The notes under the pieces were generated by a model, which had not been told where the DNA came from, made no database searches, and worked only from the letters and a program-made list of their open reading frames with translations. DNA of 64,000 nt from a virus. Shown here in pieces: positions 11,193 through 19,044 of the stretch. The position numbers and the translations under genes were made by a program. The stretch's first letter is position 1, and each line of letters begins with the position of its first letter. Location: IMG/VR virus record IMGVR_UViG_3300021091_000059, positions 6,089-70,088 of that record. One strand, given 5' to 3'.

Positions 11193-12904
11193 TGCTCGTC
11201 TTTCGTTATGTTCGTTGGAAGAATTTACTTTCAACAGGTAATTACTTTACTGAAATTAAATTAGACAATACAAGCAACACACTTGTTGTTGGTGAAAATG
11301 GATCTGGCAAATCTACGATGCTAGACGCATTATGCTTTGGTCTTTTTGGTAAACCTTTTCGTTCAATTGTTAAACCCAATCTAATTAACTCAATTAATGG
11401 TAAAGATACTATAGTTGAAGTTGAGTTTAATTCTGGTAACAAATCATATAAGATTATTCGTGGTATCAAACCAAACACCTTTGAAATTTATCAAGATGGT
11501 GAACTACTTAATCAAGACGCAGCTGCTCGTGACTATCAAGAATACCTAGAGAAGTTTATTCTTAAAATGAATTATAAATCCTTTACACAGATTGTTATTC
11601 TAGGTTCAGCATCATTTACACCATTTATGCAATTATCAAATACTGATAGACGAACTATCATCGAAGACTTACTTGACATTCAAATCTTTTCTACTATGAG
11701 CGGACTGGTCAAAGAACGAATGATCAACAATAAAGATTTGTCTTTAACCAAGAAGCATGAAATTGATATTGATCAACAAAAATATGAACTTAAAGAATCT
11801 CATATTAAACAATTAAAACAAAACAATGATGAAAAAATTACTGAATGTGAATTAGATATTGCCAACAATTCAAATTATGTTGTAACATTAGAATCAGAAA
11901 CAAACGAAAACAACAATAAAATTAATACACTTCAAGCTGAAGTAATTGCTCGCTTGGAAACAGAACAAAAGGTTAAAAAATTTAATCAACTTGAAACACA
12001 GATTGAAACCAATCTAAACAAATATAAAAAAGATATAAATTTCTTTGAGCATAATGATAATTGTCCAACGTGCCGACAAACTATTAATAAACAATTTAAA
12101 GAAGAAGAAATTGGTAATCTAAACAATAAAATTACAGAATGTGCCGAAGGCCTTTCGCAATTAGAAATTAAATTATTAGAAGAACAAAACAAACTAAATC
12201 AGATTAGTGAAAAACAAAAACAAATACAAGAACTACAAATTAAAATTGCAACCAATACCACTTCTATTACCGAAGTAAAAAAATATATTGCTCGTATTGA
12301 AAAACACATCAATGAATTAAAAAATACTAAAGATATATCAGATACCGAACAGAAACAATTGGAAGAACTTAAAGTTAAGATTGATACAGCCGAAAAAGAA
12401 CTCAAAGAATTAATTGATGAAAAAACCTATTATGAAGTGGCTTCTGGTTTGTTAAAAGATACCGGCATTAAAACAAAAATTATTAAACAATACTTACCTA
12501 TTATTAATAAGTTAGTCAACAAGTATTTGGCATCATTAGACTTCTTTGTGAACTTTAATCTTGATGAATCATTCAAAGAAACCATTAAGTCAAGGCACCG
12601 TGATGAATTTACTTACAATAACTTTTCAGAAGGTGAAAAACAGCGTATAGACATGGCTCTAATGTTAACATGGCGTGCTATTGCTAAATTAAAGAATTCA
12701 TCTAATACTAATTTATTAATACTTGATGAGATATTTGATTCAAGTCTTGATGTAAATGGTACAGACGAATTGATTAAGATATTACATATGCTTGAAAATG
12801 TTAATTTATTTGTAATTTCCCATAAAGGCGATATATTACAAGATAAATTTAACAATGTAATTCGGTTTCAAAAAATTAAAAACTTTAGTAGGATTGTAAA
12901 ATGA
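11192..12904 (+). CDS. g46: Recombination ATPase subunit gp46 (Rad50/SbcC-like)
   Basis: GENGSGKST, CPTC zinc hook, FSEGEK and LILDE. Confidence 0.97.
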   Translation: MLVFRYVRWKNLLSTGNYFTEIKLDNTSNTLVVGENGSGKSTMLDALCFGLFGKPFRSIVKPNLINSINGKDTIVEVEFNSGNKSYKIIRGIKPNTFEIYQDGELLNQDAAARDYQEYLEKFILKMNYKSFTQIVILGSASFTPFMQLSNTDRRTIIEDLLDIQIFSTMSGLVKERMINNKDLSLTKKHEIDIDQQKYELKESHIKQLKQNNDEKITECELDIANNSNYVVTLESETNENNNKINTLQAEVIARLETEQKVKKFNQLETQIETNLNKYKKDINFFEHNDNCPTCRQTINKQFKEEEIGNLNNKITECAEGLSQLEIKLLEEQNKLNQISEKQKQIQELQIKIATNTTSITEVKKYIARIEKHINELKNTKDISDTEQKQLEELKVKIDTAEKELKELIDEKTYYEVASGLLKDTGIKTKIIKQYLPIINKLVNKYLASLDFFVNFNLDESFKETIKSRHRDEFTYNNFSEGEKQRIDMALMLTWRAIAKLKNSSNTNLLILDEIFDSSLDVNGTDELIKILHMLENVNLFVISHKGDILQDKFNNVIRFQKIKNFSRIVK

Positions 12905-13497
12905 GTGACGATATATTAAACCAAGAAATATTCACCATTGATACTGGTGCTAATATTACAAAAGAGGAAAAGATTGAGCCTTTGCCATTGTTTGATGAAA
13001 ATCATCCAATGCTAAACAAGCCAATACCAATATACAAAAACGCATTACCTAATAAAAACATGAATACTTTAATTAAACGATTAAAGATGACAATGAAACA
13101 ATTCAACGGATTAGGCCTTTCAGCTAATCAATGTGGTGTTTTTGAAAGAGTATTTGTGATTGGCACCGAACACTTTCAATTTGCCTGTATCAACCCACAA
13201 ATCACCAGCCAATCGGCAGAAATGACAAAAGACAATGAAGGTTGCCTCTCCTATCCCGCTTTATATATTAAAATAAAAAGACCGTCATGGATTATGGCAT
13301 CATTCTATAATGAAAACGGTGAACATATTGAAATGAAAATGGAAGGTTTAACAGCAAGATGTTATCAACACGAACTAGATCACATGAATGGTGTAAAGTT
13401 TGTGCAATACGCTGGGCCAGTTTCATTAAGATTAGCAAAACAGAAACAAGAAAAACTTATTAAAACAATTACACGCAGAAAAAAAAATGGCAGATAG
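12901..13497 (+). CDS. def: Peptide deformylase
   Basis: GLGLSANQ, EGCLS and QHELDH motifs. Confidence 0.95.
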   Translation: MSDDILNQEIFTIDTGANITKEEKIEPLPLFDENHPMLNKPIPIYKNALPNKNMNTLIKRLKMTMKQFNGLGLSANQCGVFERVFVIGTEHFQFACINPQITSQSAEMTKDNEGCLSYPALYIKIKRPSWIMASFYNENGEHIEMKMEGLTARCYQHELDHMNGVKFVQYAGPVSLRLAKQKQEKLIKTITRRKKNGR

Positions 13498-13777
13498 ACA
13501 AGTAGCTTGGATTTTATTTTTAGTATCACTCACAATATCACTTATATTTTTAGGTGAAATAGTGAACATGAATTACGAACTAGACACTCAAAAAAGAAGA
13601 GCAGATAGTTTAGATAAAGAAATTACTATTCTAAAAAAACACCAAGATGATTTGAAATTACAATTAACAATTGTAAATAAAACTACAGCCTCTATTGAAA
13701 AAGACATAGACAACACACAAGAATTACAAAGAATACAAGCACAAAGAATGTCTGAAATTATTAAGAGAAAAAAATAA
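13487..13777 (+). CDS. Membrane-anchored coiled-coil protein
   Basis: N-terminal hydrophobic helix followed by heptad repeats. Confidence 0.55.
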   Translation: MADRQVAWILFLVSLTISLIFLGEIVNMNYELDTQKRRADSLDKEITILKKHQDDLKLQLTIVNKTTASIEKDIDNTQELQRIQAQRMSEIIKRKK

Positions 13778-15057
13778 TGGCATACGCATTTGACCCAAAA
13801 GACGATGTAGAAACCCAATGGAAGAAATGGTCAGCAGAAAATCCTGCTAACGATATGCCTTTTGTTGATGAAAACGAACTCAAACAAACCGTCATCAAAG
13901 ACTTGACTTATGTATCAAGGATGGACGTAAAAGAATATACACTTTATCAAAAGTGGTGTGAGGTTCAAGACCGCTATCCAGCTGTTATCGTAAATGATTT
14001 ATGGGAAGGTGAAAAACGGGTTATTGAAGATGAAGACCAAAGACGAGCCATTGAAGAAGTAAAAACTAATTTTTGGAATCCACAGGATCCTGATGAATAT
14101 TTAAAATTACAACCAGAACTCATCTATGCCAATAAACAAGATAAGTATCCAGAGTTGTGGAATTGTATTCGTACCTTTTCATCTACCATGAAAAACAATT
14201 CAAACATTGGCCGTAATTTGAATTTTATTGTAAGAGATAAAGCTACTCAAAAATATCTAGGTGTGATTTGTATTTCATCTGACTTCCTAGATTTAACACC
14301 AAGAGATAATTATATTGGTTGGAGCCGTGAACTGAAAACACAAGGCGGTATGATTAACCATACTGCAATTGGCTCAACGATTGTTCCATTACAACCACTT
14401 GGTTACAATTATGTTGGTGGTAAATTATTAGCTTTACTATGTTTAGCCACACCCATACAAGAATTATGGGAAAAACTCTATGGCGATAAATTAGTTTCAA
14501 TTACAACTACATCATTATATGGCCAAGCAAAACCAAATGGTTTATCACAATATGATGGTCTACCTTATTGGCAAAAAATGGGTTTTACAGCAGGTTCAGT
14601 ATCATTTGAACCTGAAAAAGAAACACGATACAAAATTCGTCAATGGTTAATGAAGAATTATACCAAGAAATATTTTGAATGGTATATCGCAAAGAAACCA
14701 AGCGGTCAGCCACACAAACGTGACCACAAGAATCGTTCACTACAATTTACTTATTCTAAATTAAATATTCCTAAAGAACTGATTAGAACAGCTCATGCTC
14801 GTGGCATATATTGGTGTCCATTGTATGATAAAACAGTAGAGTTTTTAAAAGGTGAAGATTCAACAGGCATCAAGAAAAACTTTGATACATCGATTGAAGC
14901 ATTAGTAGAAATTTGGAAAAAAGATTTAGCTAAACCAAGAATTAGTGTTTTGAAAAAGAAAGGTAAAATTTCGCATGAAACACTTTTCTATGATGATTTA
15001 ATTACTTTAACATGGCAAGAAACAAAAGACAAATATCTAGGTCAAGTTGGTCGGTAA
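13777..15057 (+). CDS. DUF4338/DruA-like (GNAT/Mom-related) protein, paralog 1
   Basis: GRNLNFIVRD..KYLGVI, RDNYIGW, QPLGYNYVGGKLLA and TTTSLYG..SQYDG match the recalled DUF4338 motif pattern. Confidence 0.7.
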   Translation: MAYAFDPKDDVETQWKKWSAENPANDMPFVDENELKQTVIKDLTYVSRMDVKEYTLYQKWCEVQDRYPAVIVNDLWEGEKRVIEDEDQRRAIEEVKTNFWNPQDPDEYLKLQPELIYANKQDKYPELWNCIRTFSSTMKNNSNIGRNLNFIVRDKATQKYLGVICISSDFLDLTPRDNYIGWSRELKTQGGMINHTAIGSTIVPLQPLGYNYVGGKLLALLCLATPIQELWEKLYGDKLVSITTTSLYGQAKPNGLSQYDGLPYWQKMGFTAGSVSFEPEKETRYKIRQWLMKNYTKKYFEWYIAKKPSGQPHKRDHKNRSLQFTYSKLNIPKELIRTAHARGIYWCPLYDKTVEFLKGEDSTGIKKNFDTSIEALVEIWKKDLAKPRISVLKKKGKISHETLFYDDLITLTWQETKDKYLGQVGR

Positions 15058-15058
15058 A

Positions 15059-15101
15059 TATAAATAAAATTCTTGACATACGATTAAAGTTATGTTAGAA
15101 T
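15059..15101 (+). promoter_or_regulatory. Tandem late (TATAAATA 15059-66) and sigma70 (TTGACA-17-TAGAAT, extended -10) promoters for the tRNA-like RNAs
   Basis: Consensus matches 14-56 nt upstream of the first RNA. Confidence 0.75.
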
Positions 15102-15114
15102 GATTATTGTAAAT

Positions 15115-15182
15115 GCGGTGGGTTGTAGAACATTAATGAATCCCCTTTATTAAGGTCTGTGCAAGCCAGACACACCGCTCCA
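15115..15182 (+). tRNA. Non-canonical tRNA-Gly(CCC)-like RNA, 68 nt
   Basis: Acceptor GCGGTG/CACCGC + U73 + encoded CCA; mini D hairpin GTT-gtag-AAC; 7-bp anticodon stem TTAATGA/TTATTAA with loop ATCCCCT; T arm GTCTG-TGCAAGC-CAGAC. Confidence 0.8.
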
Positions 15183-15185
15183 ATT

Positions 15186-15254
15186 GCGGGAGGTTGATAG
15201 AACAAAGTAGGTGTCCAGCTTACTTACTAGGTGCAAATCCTGGATCCCGCTCCA
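15186..15254 (+). tRNA. Non-canonical tRNA-Gly(UCC)-like RNA, 69 nt
   Basis: Acceptor GCGGGA/TCCCGC + U73 + CCA; mini D hairpin GTT-gatag-AAC; 7-bp stem AAGTAGG/CTTACTT with loop TGTCCAG; T arm CTAGG-TGCAAAT-CCTGG. Confidence 0.8.
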
Positions 15255-15265
15255 TTTTCTTATTT

Positions 15266-15321
15266 TGTTGTTTCCACGCAACATGTTGTTTTTTTACAAC
15301 ATTTGTTGTTTTTTTACACCA
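15266..15321. repeat. Three tandem 18-bp palindromic boxes TGTTG-N8-CAACA (putative operators)
   Basis: 15266-283, 15284-301 and 15304-321 (the last has CACCA). Confidence 0.7.
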
Positions 15322-15336
15322 ACCCTCATATTTCGC

Positions 15337-15365
15337 TTGACAAATCTGTTTTTTTATGTTAGGAT
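15337..15365 (+). promoter_or_regulatory. sigma70-type promoter of cobT-like gene
   Basis: TTGACA-17bp-TAGGAT with TG extension. Confidence 0.7.
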
Positions 15366-15393
15366 GGTCATATAACAATTGAGAAGTAATTAT

Positions 15394-17706
15394 ATGACGA
15401 ACTTTACCGTAGAATCAAAATCACAATTAGCCAAGTTGATGGCTACTGAAAACCTCACGATTCAACATTCAAAAATCCAAACAGCTAAGTTTGACCCAAA
15501 GAATCGTGTATTATATCTTCCAATCTGGCAAAATATGACAGGCGCTCTATATGACCTTTTAACAGGCCATGAAGTGGGCCATGCCCTTTATACTCCTGCC
15601 GAAGGTTGGCATGATGCCGTGATTGATAAGACCAAATCTAAAAATTTCAAATCATTCTTAAATGTAGTTGAGGATGCCCGTATTGAGAAAAAAGTCCAAC
15701 GAAAATATCCAGGCTTAAAAGCTTCCTTTATTAAAGCTTATACTGATTTAATGGGTCGTGATTTTTTCGGCATTAAAGGCCGTGATATTAATGATATGGC
15801 TTTCATCAACCGATTAAACATTTATACCAAAAGCCAATACAGTATGAAAATATTTTTTACTGGTGAAGAACAAAAAATGGTTGAAAAAGTTAAAGCTGCT
15901 GAATCGTGGGCTGATGTAATTAAAATTACCAATGAAATCTACGCTTACTCTAAAGATGAGCAATTTGACTTATCTGAATTAGAGGACTTTAATTTTATTA
16001 TTCAAAATAATAATTTTGATGGTGAATTCGAAGAAGATTCTGATTCCGTTGAAGAAGCGGGCACTGGTGATGATGAAGGTAAAAATTCAGATGATGAATC
16101 TGAGCAAGAATTAGAAGCGGAAAAAGAAAAAACCAAAGAATTTGAAGTAAATAATGATAAAGAATCCAATGTGGCTATGGAAGACCAATTTGAACCTAAC
16201 TGTGAAACCGATGAGGCCTTCCGTAAAAATGAGTCTATGCTTTTAGATGAATCAAGTAAGGATTATGTTTATGTGACTTTCCCTAAAGCTCATTTAGATA
16301 AAATTGTTACACCATATAAAAAAGTCCATTCATTGATGGAAAAATCATGGAACGAACAATTAGGTAATAATCTATTTACCGAAGGTGATGTCCAACAATT
16401 GGTTCGTGATTTCAAAAATAAAAATGAAAAATATATCTCATTACTTGCCAAAGAATTTGAGATGAAAAAGGCAGCTAAAGCTTTTGCTAAGGTTAAAATA
16501 TCTGATACAGGCGATATTGATATCAATAAAATTGCTACCTATTCTTTTGATGATAATATCTTCCGTAAAGTGATGATGGTACCAAAAGGCAAATCACACG
16601 GACTTATTTTATTGTTGGACTATTCTGGTTCAATGTCATCAAACATGGGAGGTTCAATTGAGCAAATCCTTGTCTTGGCGATGTTTTGCCGTAAAGTAAA
16701 TATTCCATTTCATGTTTATAGCTTTTCTGATTCATGGTCAAATTGGGAAAAAGACCATGATATAGGTATAAATAATCAATCTTCTTCTGAAGATGAGATA
16801 AACAAGATGTTTACCAGTAATCCTGGTGAAGTAAGAATGAGGTGTGTTTTACTCCGTGAATACCTTAATTCAAAAATGGGTAATGCAGAATTCAATCGAT
16901 GCCTCAAGAATATGCTAATGCTCAAAGCGTCTTATGATGACCGTAGCACTAGGTATGGTCCCATAAGATTCTATAGACCACAATCAGAAAATTTATCTAA
17001 TACACCTTTAACACAAGCTATTTGTGCTATGAAAGATGTAATGTTAAACTTCCGTAAAGTGAATAACCTAGATTTAAGTAGTTTGGTTATTGTTCACGAT
17101 GGCGAAGCTGACCAAACGAGCACATATTACCCAACCAATTCAGATGATAACGATCTCTTGACCACCTATGACTTAGAAAAAAAAGTCTTCAATCGTGGTC
17201 GTGATAAAGTGTTTGATTCACATTCTACCAATATCATTTTTATGGATCCAAAAATTAAATTTGAGTATAGGGTTAATCCACAAGATGATATTAACCGTGA
17301 TTATGTGATTAAAGCTACACTAGAATGGTTCCGTAAGGCAACAAATTCTAAAATATTTGGTTTCTTTATTACACCAAATACCAGCCGTAATTTACAAGGT
17401 GCTATCGCTAATAAGTATTATGATAAAAATGGCACATTATTTACTAATAGAGTTTTACATTGGGAAAAAGTTACACAATTATCTAAAGAATTGAAAACAA
17501 ACAAAGCTTTGGTGTCCCATAATCCTGGTTTTAATAAATTCTTTTTCATTCTTGGTGGCAAAGATTTGAATACCGAAATTGATGAAATTGAAATTGAAGG
17601 TAAAGTGACAACCAATAAATTAAAAAATGCCTTTATGAAGTTTAATAAAAAGCGCCAAGTAAATAGAATCGTGGTGTCCAAATTCATTGAGGGCATCGCC
17701 GCCTAA
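15394..17706 (+). CDS. CobT-like protein: N-terminal HEXXH peptidase domain + vWA domain
   Basis: HEVGHALYT, NVVEDARIE, acidic linker, LLDYSGSM MIDAS and VHDGE; paired with the MoxR AAA gene. Confidence 0.85.
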   Translation: MTNFTVESKSQLAKLMATENLTIQHSKIQTAKFDPKNRVLYLPIWQNMTGALYDLLTGHEVGHALYTPAEGWHDAVIDKTKSKNFKSFLNVVEDARIEKKVQRKYPGLKASFIKAYTDLMGRDFFGIKGRDINDMAFINRLNIYTKSQYSMKIFFTGEEQKMVEKVKAAESWADVIKITNEIYAYSKDEQFDLSELEDFNFIIQNNNFDGEFEEDSDSVEEAGTGDDEGKNSDDESEQELEAEKEKTKEFEVNNDKESNVAMEDQFEPNCETDEAFRKNESMLLDESSKDYVYVTFPKAHLDKIVTPYKKVHSLMEKSWNEQLGNNLFTEGDVQQLVRDFKNKNEKYISLLAKEFEMKKAAKAFAKVKISDTGDIDINKIATYSFDDNIFRKVMMVPKGKSHGLILLLDYSGSMSSNMGGSIEQILVLAMFCRKVNIPFHVYSFSDSWSNWEKDHDIGINNQSSSEDEINKMFTSNPGEVRMRCVLLREYLNSKMGNAEFNRCLKNMLMLKASYDDRSTRYGPIRFYRPQSENLSNTPLTQAICAMKDVMLNFRKVNNLDLSSLVIVHDGEADQTSTYYPTNSDDNDLLTTYDLEKKVFNRGRDKVFDSHSTNIIFMDPKIKFEYRVNPQDDINRDYVIKATLEWFRKATNSKIFGFFITPNTSRNLQGAIANKYYDKNGTLFTNRVLHWEKVTQLSKELKTNKALVSHNPGFNKFFFILGGKDLNTEIDEIEIEGKVTTNKLKNAFMKFNKKRQVNRIVVSKFIEGIAA

Positions 17707-17752
17707 GCTCTTGATTTATAAGGGTTTAATTAAATCCTGTAAGTTATTGATT
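17704..17752 (-). promoter_or_regulatory. Two IHF-consensus sites upstream of the cobS promoter
   Basis: Reverse complements AATCAAGAGCTTA (17704-16) and AATCAATAACTTA (17740-52) fit WATCARNNNNTTR. Confidence 0.5.
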
Positions 17753-17770
17753 TAAAAGAACATTTAGTGC

Positions 17771-17799
17771 TTGACAAATAGTGAAATACCTGATATAAT
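17771..17799 (+). promoter_or_regulatory. Consensus sigma70 promoter
   Basis: TTGACA-17bp-TATAAT with TG extension. Confidence 0.85.
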
Positions 17800-17829
17800 G
17801 GTTATACAATTAAAAAGGAGTTTTATATT

Positions 17830-19044
17830 ATGAGTAGCAATCGTGCCGAATTGCGTGACAAGTTTATCAACGCCCTAAAGGCTACAGGTAAACAGGAAGT
17901 CACCAAAAGTGAAATTAAAGACATTATGAAGGGCATAGGTCTAACCAATGTCCAATGGTTCACCAAAGACAATTCCAATCGTATTGGTCGTGGTCTCTAT
18001 CGTGTTCCAAACGCTATAGGCGCACCCAATGTTCAATTTGAACCATTACCTGAATTACAGGCCCAAATCGTTCCAATCGTCAGGAAACGAGAGGATTCTA
18101 ATAATCGTATTACCAATGTTACTACTGAATTGGATCTCTCCGATTTAGTTCCAAAGACATATAAAAATTATGTTCCTTTCGGTAACTTTGATGATGTGGC
18201 CTCTATTGTAGAATCCAAACGATTTTTTCCAGTTTTTATAACAGGCCATTCTGGTAATGGTAAAACAATGTCCATTGAACAGGCTTGTGCCAAACTTAAA
18301 AGAAAATTCGTATTGGTGTCTATGACACCAGAAACCGATGAAAGTGACCTCCTTGGTAACTATGTTTTAATCAATGGTGAAATGGAATGGCGAGATGGTC
18401 CTGTGACCACTGCCGCTCGTCAAGGCGCTGTTTTGTGTGTCGATGAGATTGACTATGGCGCTCAAAATCTATCTTGCTTGCAACGGGTGCTTGAAGGTAA
18501 ACCTTTCTTACTTAAAAAGAAAGGTGAATTGATTACACCAGCTGAAGGCTTTACAGTATTTGCAACCGCTAATACCAAAGGTAAAGGTTCAGAAGATGGT
18601 CGTTATATGTTTACCAATGTTTTGAATGAAGCGTTCCTTGAGCGTTTCCGTAACACCTACGAACAGGATTGGCCACCAGTTGCCACCGAGAAAAAAATTA
18701 TCAAAAAAGAGTTAGAATCAGTCGATAAGGTTGACGATGATTTTGCCGAAAAACTTGTAACGTGGGCAACAGTCATTCGCCAAACTTTTGATGAAGGTGG
18801 TTGCGATGAAGTGATTTCTACCCGTAGATTAGTCCATATCGTAGAAACATTTGGCATCTTTGGTGACAAAATGAAAGCGATTGAATTATGTTTGAATAGG
18901 TTTGATGATGACACCAAAACATCATTTATAGACCTTTATACCAAAGTTGACGCAGGTGCTTCAGTTGAAGAAATTATGGCACCAGCGCCTGAAGTAGTTG
19001 AAGAGGCTTCCCGTCCTGATGACACGGTTGCCGCTTCGTTTTAG
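17830..19044 (+). CDS. cobS: CobS-like MoxR AAA+ ATPase
   Basis: GHSGNGKT, VDEID, ATANTKGKG, NEAFLERF and STRRLVH, as in cyanophage CobS. Confidence 0.92.
   Translation: MSSNRAELRDKFINALKATGKQEVTKSEIKDIMKGIGLTNVQWFTKDNSNRIGRGLYRVPNAIGAPNVQFEPLPELQAQIVPIVRKREDSNNRITNVTTELDLSDLVPKTYKNYVPFGNFDDVASIVESKRFFPVFITGHSGNGKTMSIEQACAKLKRKFVLVSMTPETDESDLLGNYVLINGEMEWRDGPVTTAARQGAVLCVDEIDYGAQNLSCLQRVLEGKPFLLKKKGELITPAEGFTVFATANTKGKGSEDGRYMFTNVLNEAFLERFRNTYEQDWPPVATEKKIIKKELESVDKVDDDFAEKLVTWATVIRQTFDEGGCDEVISTRRLVHIVETFGIFGDKMKAIELCLNRFDDDTKTSFIDLYTKVDAGASVEEIMAPAPEVVEEASRPDDTVAASF

Follow-up and report, generated by a model that had tools for sequence, protein, structure and literature searches.

What are the two short tandem RNAs, resembling glycine tRNAs and missed by standard tRNA finders, that lie directly behind a gene of the DUF4338/DruA family in a phage genome? 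The question is raised by a 64,000-nucleotide (nt) stretch of IMG/VR virus record IMGVR_UViG_3300021091_000059, hereafter the window, which is part of a 70,088-base contig with a completeness of 39% (CheckV). The window has a G+C content of about 33%, all of its 73 long open reading frames (ORFs) lie on the + strand, and its T4-like phage gene markers include a gp45-type clamp, a deoxynucleoside monophosphate (dNMP) kinase, an SMC/gp46-like ATPase and a peptide deformylase; the source is a freshwater T4-like phage. The elements concerned are RNA1 (type 1, 68 nt; 15115-15182, + strand), identified by sequence, fold and covariance models; RNA2 (type 2, 69 nt; 15186-15254, + strand), identified by sequence, fold and a covariance model; and the gene of a 426-amino-acid (aa) DUF4338/DruA-family protein (13777-15057, + strand), the proposed enzyme partner of the RNAs. 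The explanation that we favour, to which we give slightly less than an even chance, is that the RNAs are non-decoding glycyl carriers for this DruA-like GNAT protein, with DNA as the likeliest target.

A conserved RNA family behind the DUF4338/DruA gene

Both mini tRNA-Gly-like RNAs have a 6-base-pair (bp) acceptor stem followed by a G7.A mismatch and lack the linker at positions 8-9. The D arm is a 3-bp hairpin with the loop GTAG in RNA1 and GATAG in RNA2, neither with a GG pair, the anticodon stem measures 7 bp, the variable linker is a single nucleotide, and a 5-bp T stem, with the T loop TGCAAGC in RNA1 and TGCAAAT in RNA2, is followed by U73 and an encoded CCA. The anticodon loops read ATCCCCT, with CCC, in RNA1 and TGTCCAG, with TCC and a G at position 33, in RNA2; of the two, RNA1 alone can form a 7-nt loop with U33 and CCC. 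A sequence-only reading of the window had described two tandem tRNA-Gly-like RNAs of this architecture, and the description was borne out at both places, including the G in place of U33 in RNA2 and the divergence of stems that still pair: the copies agree at 36 of 69 aligned positions, with stem sequences that differ and pairing that is kept. RNA2 takes the cloverleaf as its minimum free energy (MFE) fold (-23.5 kcal/mol, z -2.2), the MFE fold of RNA1 is another structure that beats its cloverleaf by 2.2 kcal/mol, and in the MFE folds the anticodon hairpin has 8 bp and a 5-nt loop. The reverse strands of both RNAs folded no better than shuffles (z about -0.5).

A covariance model, R1, was built from RNA1 and RNA2, and related contigs were fetched through the downstream and the upstream genes. 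The R1 model scored RNA1 at 87.2 bits and RNA2 at 91.9 bits (model R2 gave 53.6 bits on RNA1), and on contigs fetched through the 775-aa gene that follows the RNAs it found same-strand matches just upstream of that gene. With a loose end-anchored pattern, RNAs were detected at 127 of the 129 DruA-like loci with enough downstream sequence, 105 of them with one RNA and 22 with two. Since the two contig fetches overlap, the honest count is 78 distinct junctions: by the pattern, a single RNA is present at 63, a pair at 13 and none at 2. The pattern-negative cases are L160, where A replaces G at position 2 and R1 still gives a match, and L265, with only 188 nt of downstream sequence. The 59 unique RNAs are 63-70 nt long and fall into type 1, with a C-rich loop containing CCC, and type 2, with the invariant loop UGUCCA[A/G].

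Base pairs were counted in 56 of the 59 RNAs on MAFFT alignments not fitted to structure, L244, L228 and L267 being excluded for their unalignable D region. In type 1 (n = 47) 83.8% of cells were paired, compared with 38-52% when the partner was slid, and the corresponding values for type 2 (n = 9) were 92.3% and at most 57%; compensatory changes occurred in 14 of 22 pairs in type 1 and in 10 of 22 in type 2. Double-change cells in type 1 numbered 138 versus 43 ± 6 after shuffling (0 of 500), a comparison in which related sequences can beat shuffles without structure, a weakness from which the slid controls are free. The two RNAs are members of a conserved, covarying RNA family, present at 76 of the 78 junctions, and are not decayed pseudogenes, as the initial reading had also held.

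The RNAs are linked to the DruA-like gene, a module that the sequence-only reading had not noticed and that gives the main clue to function. Sequence of at least 350 nt upstream of the 775-aa gene was available at 67 loci; the RNA and a DruA-like C-terminus occur together at 51 of these and are both absent at 16, and no locus is discordant. When mapped on a quick IQ-TREE phylogeny of the 775-aa protein (60 distinct rows), the module requires four changes between presence and absence, at least three of them being forced by well-supported branches. The RNA starts so close to the DruA stop codon (median 44 nt) that each joint loss was possibly a single deletion.

Glycine identity and translation features of the RNAs

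The acceptor pairs G1-C72, C2-G71, G3-C70 and G4-C69 are invariant in all 47 type-1 rows, and U73 and CCA in all 59 unique RNAs; the pair G53-C61 is kept, and 55 of the 59 carry CC in the loop. The set of elements read by glycyl-tRNA synthetase (GlyRS), that is G1-C72, C2-G71, G3-C70, U73, C35 and C36, is present in both RNA1 and RNA2, which agrees with the initial claim that bacterial identity elements are kept. The pair G3-C70 is an identity element of bacterial GlyRS in addition to the determinants at 1-72, 2-71, U73, C35 and C36. These last are the ones given in the relevant passages of PMC7826273.

Features that serve translation are lost in the same molecules. The sequence TTC at T-loop positions 54-56 occurs in none of the 57 parsed RNAs (TTT in 36, TGC in 12, AGC in 3, TGT in 2 and others in 4), and the D loop is without G18G19. 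An anticodon hairpin of even length, whose symmetric stem is unable to leave seven loop bases, was found in 33 of 55 unique RNAs (87 of 139 instances), and a 7-nt loop is impossible in the commonest family form, which is 63 nt long. Type-2 RNAs have a fixed G33 (9 of 9). A CCC anticodon reads well only GGG, and this codon makes up 22 of the 1325 glycine codons (1.7%) in the 73 ORFs of the window, a scarcity already apparent to the sequence-only reading. Altogether, the anatomy suggests that the RNAs are unlikely to decode, in line with what had been supposed.

Standard tRNA finders do miss both RNAs. In the window ARAGORN reported no tRNA, and its -mt mode at the default threshold also passed over the two; a relaxed mitochondrial mode labels RNA2 'mtRNA-Gly(tcc)'. 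Rfam gave no match on the window at gathering scores and none locally at E ≤ 10. On the whole 70-kb contig RF00005 gave no match at E ≤ 10, with positive controls in 14 of 14 genomes, and neither ARAGORN nor RF00005 found any other tRNA there. By score, by the elbow of D arm and T loop and by the anticodon arm, the RNAs fall outside the elongator tRNAs of RF00005. Annotators miss such RNA genes or call tiny ORFs instead, as in phage Mosig (see below).

These features bear on the possibility that the RNAs are functional, if unusual, elongator tRNAs-Gly that add to the host pool, their place beside the DruA-like gene being incidental. Such a role would suit the frequency of tRNAs in T4-like phages, seen here as arrays in cyanophages, and the decoding ability of armless mitochondrial tRNAs; moreover, the window RNAs are able to form a 7-nt loop that holds CCC or UCC, and in a marine type of the RNA a full 7-bp acceptor stem is combined with a canonical UU[A/U]CCAA loop. 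We consider it improbable in view of the rarity of GGG, the G33 fixed in type 2, the 63-nt form devoid of a 7-nt loop, the T loops that never show TTC, the missing G18G19 and the silence of RF00005; in addition, the contig has no other tRNA, and the RNAs are of glycine type only and always at the DruA-like gene. The D-arm-reduced mitochondrial tRNAs share with the phage RNAs a shrunken D arm and the loss of elbow contacts between D loop and T loop. They decode on specialised mitoribosomes, whereas most members of the phage family are without a 7-nt anticodon loop and belong to a phage of a free-living bacterium.

Non-proteogenic (NP) tRNA-Gly species NP1-NP3 of Staphylococcus aureus and S. epidermidis, the donors for FmhB, FemA and FemB, likewise keep the GlyRS set and have TGC or TGT in the T loop. 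As described in parts of PMC7826273, the S. aureus molecules, in which TGC or TGT replaces TTC, have an altered D loop, bind EF-Tu weakly and feed the Fem transferases, being thus diverted to an aminoacyl transferase of the GNAT superfamily. They differ from the phage RNAs in being full-size, cellular and called by ordinary finders; the phage RNAs are 63-69 nt long, with a 3-bp D hairpin, an anticodon stem of 6-8 bp and no 8-9 linker, and they lie beside a DUF4338 gene and not a Fem gene, peptidoglycan not being expected as the target. In kind, the system proposed here is one of tRNA-dependent GNAT transferases with a dedicated non-proteogenic tRNA-Gly, in a new variant form.

Phage tRNAs that counter tRNA-cleaving defences exist, and the RNAs could be decoys or sponges against a host defence of this kind, or against a tRNA-binding factor, independently of the DruA-like enzyme; the sequence-only reading had named anticodon-nuclease decoys as an alternative, and the RNAs are driven by a strong early-type promoter. 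This seems to us very unlikely, as the anticodon loop, the usual target of the nucleases, is least conserved in size and shape while the acceptor end is invariant, and as it would leave unexplained why the RNAs accompany one gene family at 76 of 78 junctions; we know of no nuclease that attacks glycine tRNA. Elongators and enzyme-independent decoys both fit the anatomy and the linkage less well than glycyl carriers do.

The DruA-like protein and the proposed glycyl transfer

The 426-aa protein matches Pfam PF14236 (E 5.6e-20; 72.1 bits versus a cut-off of 27), a family of 929 representative clusters to which all 49 aligned diverse relatives also belong, and it is matched by the PADLOC models for DruA (PDLC00002 at 6.9e-17). 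Its AF2 model (pLDDT, for predicted local distance difference test, 92.7; predicted template modelling score, pTM, 0.89) has a GNAT-fold core at about residues 106-370, and a GNAT assignment for DUF4338 was made independently in a passage of PMC10853773. The N-terminal 110 residues folded alone (pLDDT 68, pTM 0.29) gave a model too poor for structure search. Against 48,161 PDB representatives, the top VIA-align match of the protein was Mom of phage Mu (8bv8_B; Z 9.8, root-mean-square deviation 3.9 Å, 167 residues), followed by acetyl-CoA GNATs (Z 9.1-7.8) and FemA (7.8), rows within 1 Z counting as tied. Foldseek returned weak GNAT matches only (E ≥ 0.02), with Mom in 35th place (E 0.11), and a PDB sequence search with the family profile gave nothing below E 0.16. 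In Protein Atlas, 'GNAT-phage-like' PF22559 comes closest among the named clusters other than PF14236, with a value of 0.84 that is to be taken as a lead only. A near-invariant Q-P-x-G...G-G-K stretch follows strand 4 in the family and, from its residues, could be a CoA pyrophosphate loop.

The function that we propose would proceed as follows. The RNAs would be transcribed from their own early-type promoter, trimmed like tRNAs and charged by the host GlyRS through G1-C72, C2-G71, G3-C70, U73, C35 and C36. The altered elbow, with neither G18G19 nor T54-Psi55-C56, and the odd anticodon arm would keep them off EF-Tu and the ribosome, and the DUF4338/DruA-family GNAT would take the glycyl group from the RNA 3′ end and pass it to its target. 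By analogy with Mu Mom we infer that this target is most likely DNA, in which case the modification would protect phage DNA from host nucleases.

According to the parts of Silva et al. (2026, PMC13219725) that deal with the reaction, Mom moves glycine from Gly-tRNA-Gly to N6 of adenine in double-stranded DNA, all three E. coli isoacceptors serve it, and recognition of the acceptor end only is suspected; DUF4338 and dedicated tRNAs go unmentioned in these parts. Mom (PF25680, 8bv8) is, like the DruA-like protein, a phage GNAT-fold enzyme, and it is the nominal top structural match; it is unlike it in having 231 aa versus 426 aa here, where there are extra N- and C-terminal parts, in using ordinary host tRNAs and in being without sequence or profile similarity to it. 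The catalytic residues of Mom are R111 and S124. The DruA-like protein shares the fold of Mom and, if the analogy holds, perhaps also its way of working. Among the mom loci, the best 80 of 568 (355 kb) were examined with ARAGORN, which found four tRNAs, and three of these are tRNA-Gly(UCC) genes on the same strand as mom and 121-203 nt upstream of it (L343:2306-2379, L344:2300-2373 and L348:2224-2297). The three lie inside their contigs, encode CCA and come from at least two unrelated lineages; they are canonical, with a TTCGA T loop, and not mini-mimics. Their position suggests that some phages with mom likewise encode a glycine tRNA of their own.

In relatives without the module, the slot between the peptide deformylase and the peptidase holds a 143-aa GNAT and a 525-530-aa protein, as found in the three of 16 module-less loci whose slot proteins were scanned (L144:1814-3834, L196:2267-3841 and L182:489-2066). 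The C-terminal part of the larger protein scores 25.5, 35.2 and 27.5 bits against the N6/N4 DNA methylase family (cut-off 26.7) and weakly matches two PHROG DNA methyltransferase families; the first ~390 residues of the protein match nothing. With scores this marginal, the exchange of two cassettes in the slot is compatible with a common part in modifying DNA.

GNATs meet tRNA either as donor (Fem, L/F transferase, MprF, PacB, Mom) or as target (AtaT, TacT, TmcA), as set out in a section of PMC13219725. Besides the donor role favoured here, the RNA could be a target or regulator of the GNAT, whether as a glycyl-RNA acetylated in the manner of TacT or AtaT or as a decoy or antidote for a DruA-type enzyme, GlyRS or a glycine sensor. 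The fold matches acetyl-CoA GNATs as well as it matches Mom, the Q-P-x-G...G-G-K stretch could bind CoA pyrophosphate, and tight linkage suits any kind of pair; we nevertheless regard this alternative as unlikely. A phage would gain little from a toxin-type enzyme accompanied by its own substrate, and both the exchange of the slot with a gene for a DNA-methylase domain and the tRNA-Gly genes beside true mom genes argue for the donor role. That the GlyRS identity set and CCA are so strictly kept points to the glycyl ester as the useful part. The remaining probability goes to explanations that we have not thought of.

Several observations weigh against glycyl carriage for a Mom-like reaction. 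Co-occurrence is linkage, and says little about function. The Z-score of Mom lies within 1 of those of generic acetyl-CoA GNATs and its Foldseek rank is 35th, so the donor is unreadable from the fold. The Mom profile PF25680 matched none of 49 family members at E ≤ 1, and hhalign gave a probability of 1% versus Mu Mom and 0.15% versus a 30-sequence Mom profile; on these grounds the DruA-like protein is not a Mom-family member. The methylase-domain scores of the slot proteins are near the cut-off (25.5-35.2 versus 26.7 bits). Finally, relatives in marine phages lack the close pairing of gene and RNA. No Gly-acceptor-like RNA and no ARAGORN tRNA turned up within 2.5 kb of the gene at any of 80 loci in the marine Mosig-like branch. 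A 74-nt RNA of Mosig (GCGG...CCGC-U-CCA) lies farther off, about 6.5 kb downstream, sharing the strand of the gene and just ahead of the gp45 clamp gene (L291:1501-1574, - strand, equal to MT647606.1 7779-7852); ARAGORN misses it, and GenBank annotates a 31-aa hypothetical protein there, Mosig_000011. Mosig-type RNAs, 76-85% identical, were located by BLAST 7-8 kb downstream in four of five long marine contigs, the fifth ending too early, and R1 with default filters left the marine-type RNA undetected in all five. The marine RNA has a 7-bp acceptor stem, a canonical UU[A/U]CCAA loop, a GGCAGUA T loop and a D loop without GG; with this 7-nt loop and its U33, some members of the family might be able to decode. 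In HTVC008M, which has the gene, neither covariance model nor BLAST detected the RNA. In the cultured marine pelagiphages and six cyanophages there was no R1 or R2 match within 1.5-2 kb of the DruA-like gene, which in the cyanophages sits between clamp-loader genes; whole-record R1 and R2 matches in cyanophages are ordinary tRNAs in arrays. From the marine, HTVC008M and cyanophage cases, the enzyme is evidently able to work without an adjacent RNA, perhaps without a private one, and host tRNA-Gly could serve the DruA-like enzyme, by analogy with Mom.

Ahead of the peptidase gene, HTVC008M and Mosig have in the gap a conserved bulged hairpin (GCTGTGCGA..TGACGCA.C; L282:2625-2665 and L281:3215-3250), which occupies the place of the freshwater mini-tRNAs. 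The cyanophage DUF4338 homologs (L283-L289) are shorter than the freshwater protein, and their genes lie between the gp44 and gp62 clamp-loader genes; in the S-SCSM2R record the gene is labelled 'methylcarbamoylase mom', though it matches PF14236 and not the Mom family.

A wider proposition, which we hold to be doubtful, is that DUF4338/DruA GNATs are aminoacyl-tRNA-dependent transferases, that T4-like phages of SAR11/LD12-type bacteria would use a private minimal cofactor RNA, the smallest of the natural cloverleaf substrates of GlyRS, to bring glycine past EF-Tu and the ribosome for a glycine-derived DNA modification, and that DruA of Druantia would likewise use a charged tRNA. DruA of Druantia type I resembles the phage protein in PF14236 membership and in the PADLOC DruA match; the protein studied here is phage-encoded and not in a defence island. 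No other Druantia component was found among the five neighbouring proteins scanned with PADLOC, and no Fem-family gene among the ten neighbours scanned. The distant DUF4338 members P0160 and P0133 had no relatives in viral contigs, and P0222 had two partial matches in genome contigs, both outside the DruA domain. A literature search, with subscription journals and supplements outside it, found nothing linking DUF4338/DruA to a tRNA-like RNA, and the whole word 'DruA' is absent from 10.1101/2025.09.15.676423 and PMC11090510.

If glycyl carriage is the correct explanation, this would be a second enzyme family that uses charged tRNA beyond proteins, lipids and the cell wall in a phage, and the first virus to supply its own stripped-down carrier RNA. 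From the 63-nt members one could read the smallest set of features accepted by GlyRS, RNase P and the transferase and rejected by EF-Tu and the ribosome, and the system would offer a handle on the chemistry of the widespread DruA/DUF4338 family and on the part that it plays in Druantia defence. The host group, SAR11 together with its freshwater kin, ranks among the most abundant bacteria, and a modification of the DNA of their phages would affect aquatic virome sequencing and restriction biology.

Promoters, transcripts and surroundings of the module

The sequence-only reading had placed early and late promoters upstream of the RNAs, and the early one stands. A sigma70-type promoter (TTGACA-17-TAGAAT with TG, 11 of 12 matches; 15073-15101, + strand) ends about 13 nt before G1 of RNA1, and 90 of 127 related loci have a similar promoter no more than 60 nt upstream of their first RNA. 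The late one is not supported: the motif TATAAATA at 15059-15066 occurs seven times in the window, versus 10.6 ± 3.5 expected, and within 80 nt upstream of the RNA in only 4 of 127 related loci. The idea that the RNAs are mere 3′ punctuation of the DruA mRNA was rejected on account of their own promoter in 90 of 127 loci and of the marine RNAs, 7 kb from the gene.

Of 15 listed sequencing runs, four from lake metatranscriptomes were examined. Contigs from three of the four (three studies), from relatives 90-99% alike, cover the DruA 3′ end, the promoter and RNA1, as assemblies that show neither transcript ends nor whether RNA or carried-over DNA was sequenced; the fourth run (X12) gave no match. 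In one of these contigs 128 other letters replace the stretch of RNA2 and terminator, and another continues into a variant type-2 RNA.

Two tandem hairpins, TGTTG-N8-CAACA followed by T runs (15266-15301, + strand), were noted by eye behind RNA2 as a possible terminator or regulatory element; a simple terminator scan makes no call there. Such hairpins, often in the form CTGTTGTTTCCAyrCAACAG, are found repeatedly in the window and most related contigs, where they stand just upstream of sigma70-type TTGACA promoters (for example in the upstream regions of L147, L162 and L183), and may be a phage-specific terminator or regulatory site. A second sigma70-type promoter (10 of 12 matches, TG present; 15337-15365, + strand), for the 775-aa gene, forms the 3′ border of the module.

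Searches of the RNA region with megablast and blastn against the phage collection gave no match. A scan of viral contigs with a bare 14-base DNA pattern gave at least 118 matches (L002-L119), judged to be mostly chance for that collection.

By the 426-aa gene, the nearest cultured relatives are the Pelagibacter phages Mosig EXVC030M (60% identity) and HTVC008M (56%), and the local order of peptide deformylase, DUF4338 gene and peptidase is common to the window and both phages. The flanks of the module in the window are the phage peptide deformylase (12901-13497) on one side and, on the other (15379-19044), the 775-aa peptidase-like protein (15379-17706, + strand; PHROG 459 peptidase, E 8e-170), which contains HExxH, followed by a MoxR/CbbQ-type AAA ATPase. 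The pairing of the PHROG 459 peptidase-like protein with a MoxR/CbbQ-type ATPase is kept in pelagiphages.

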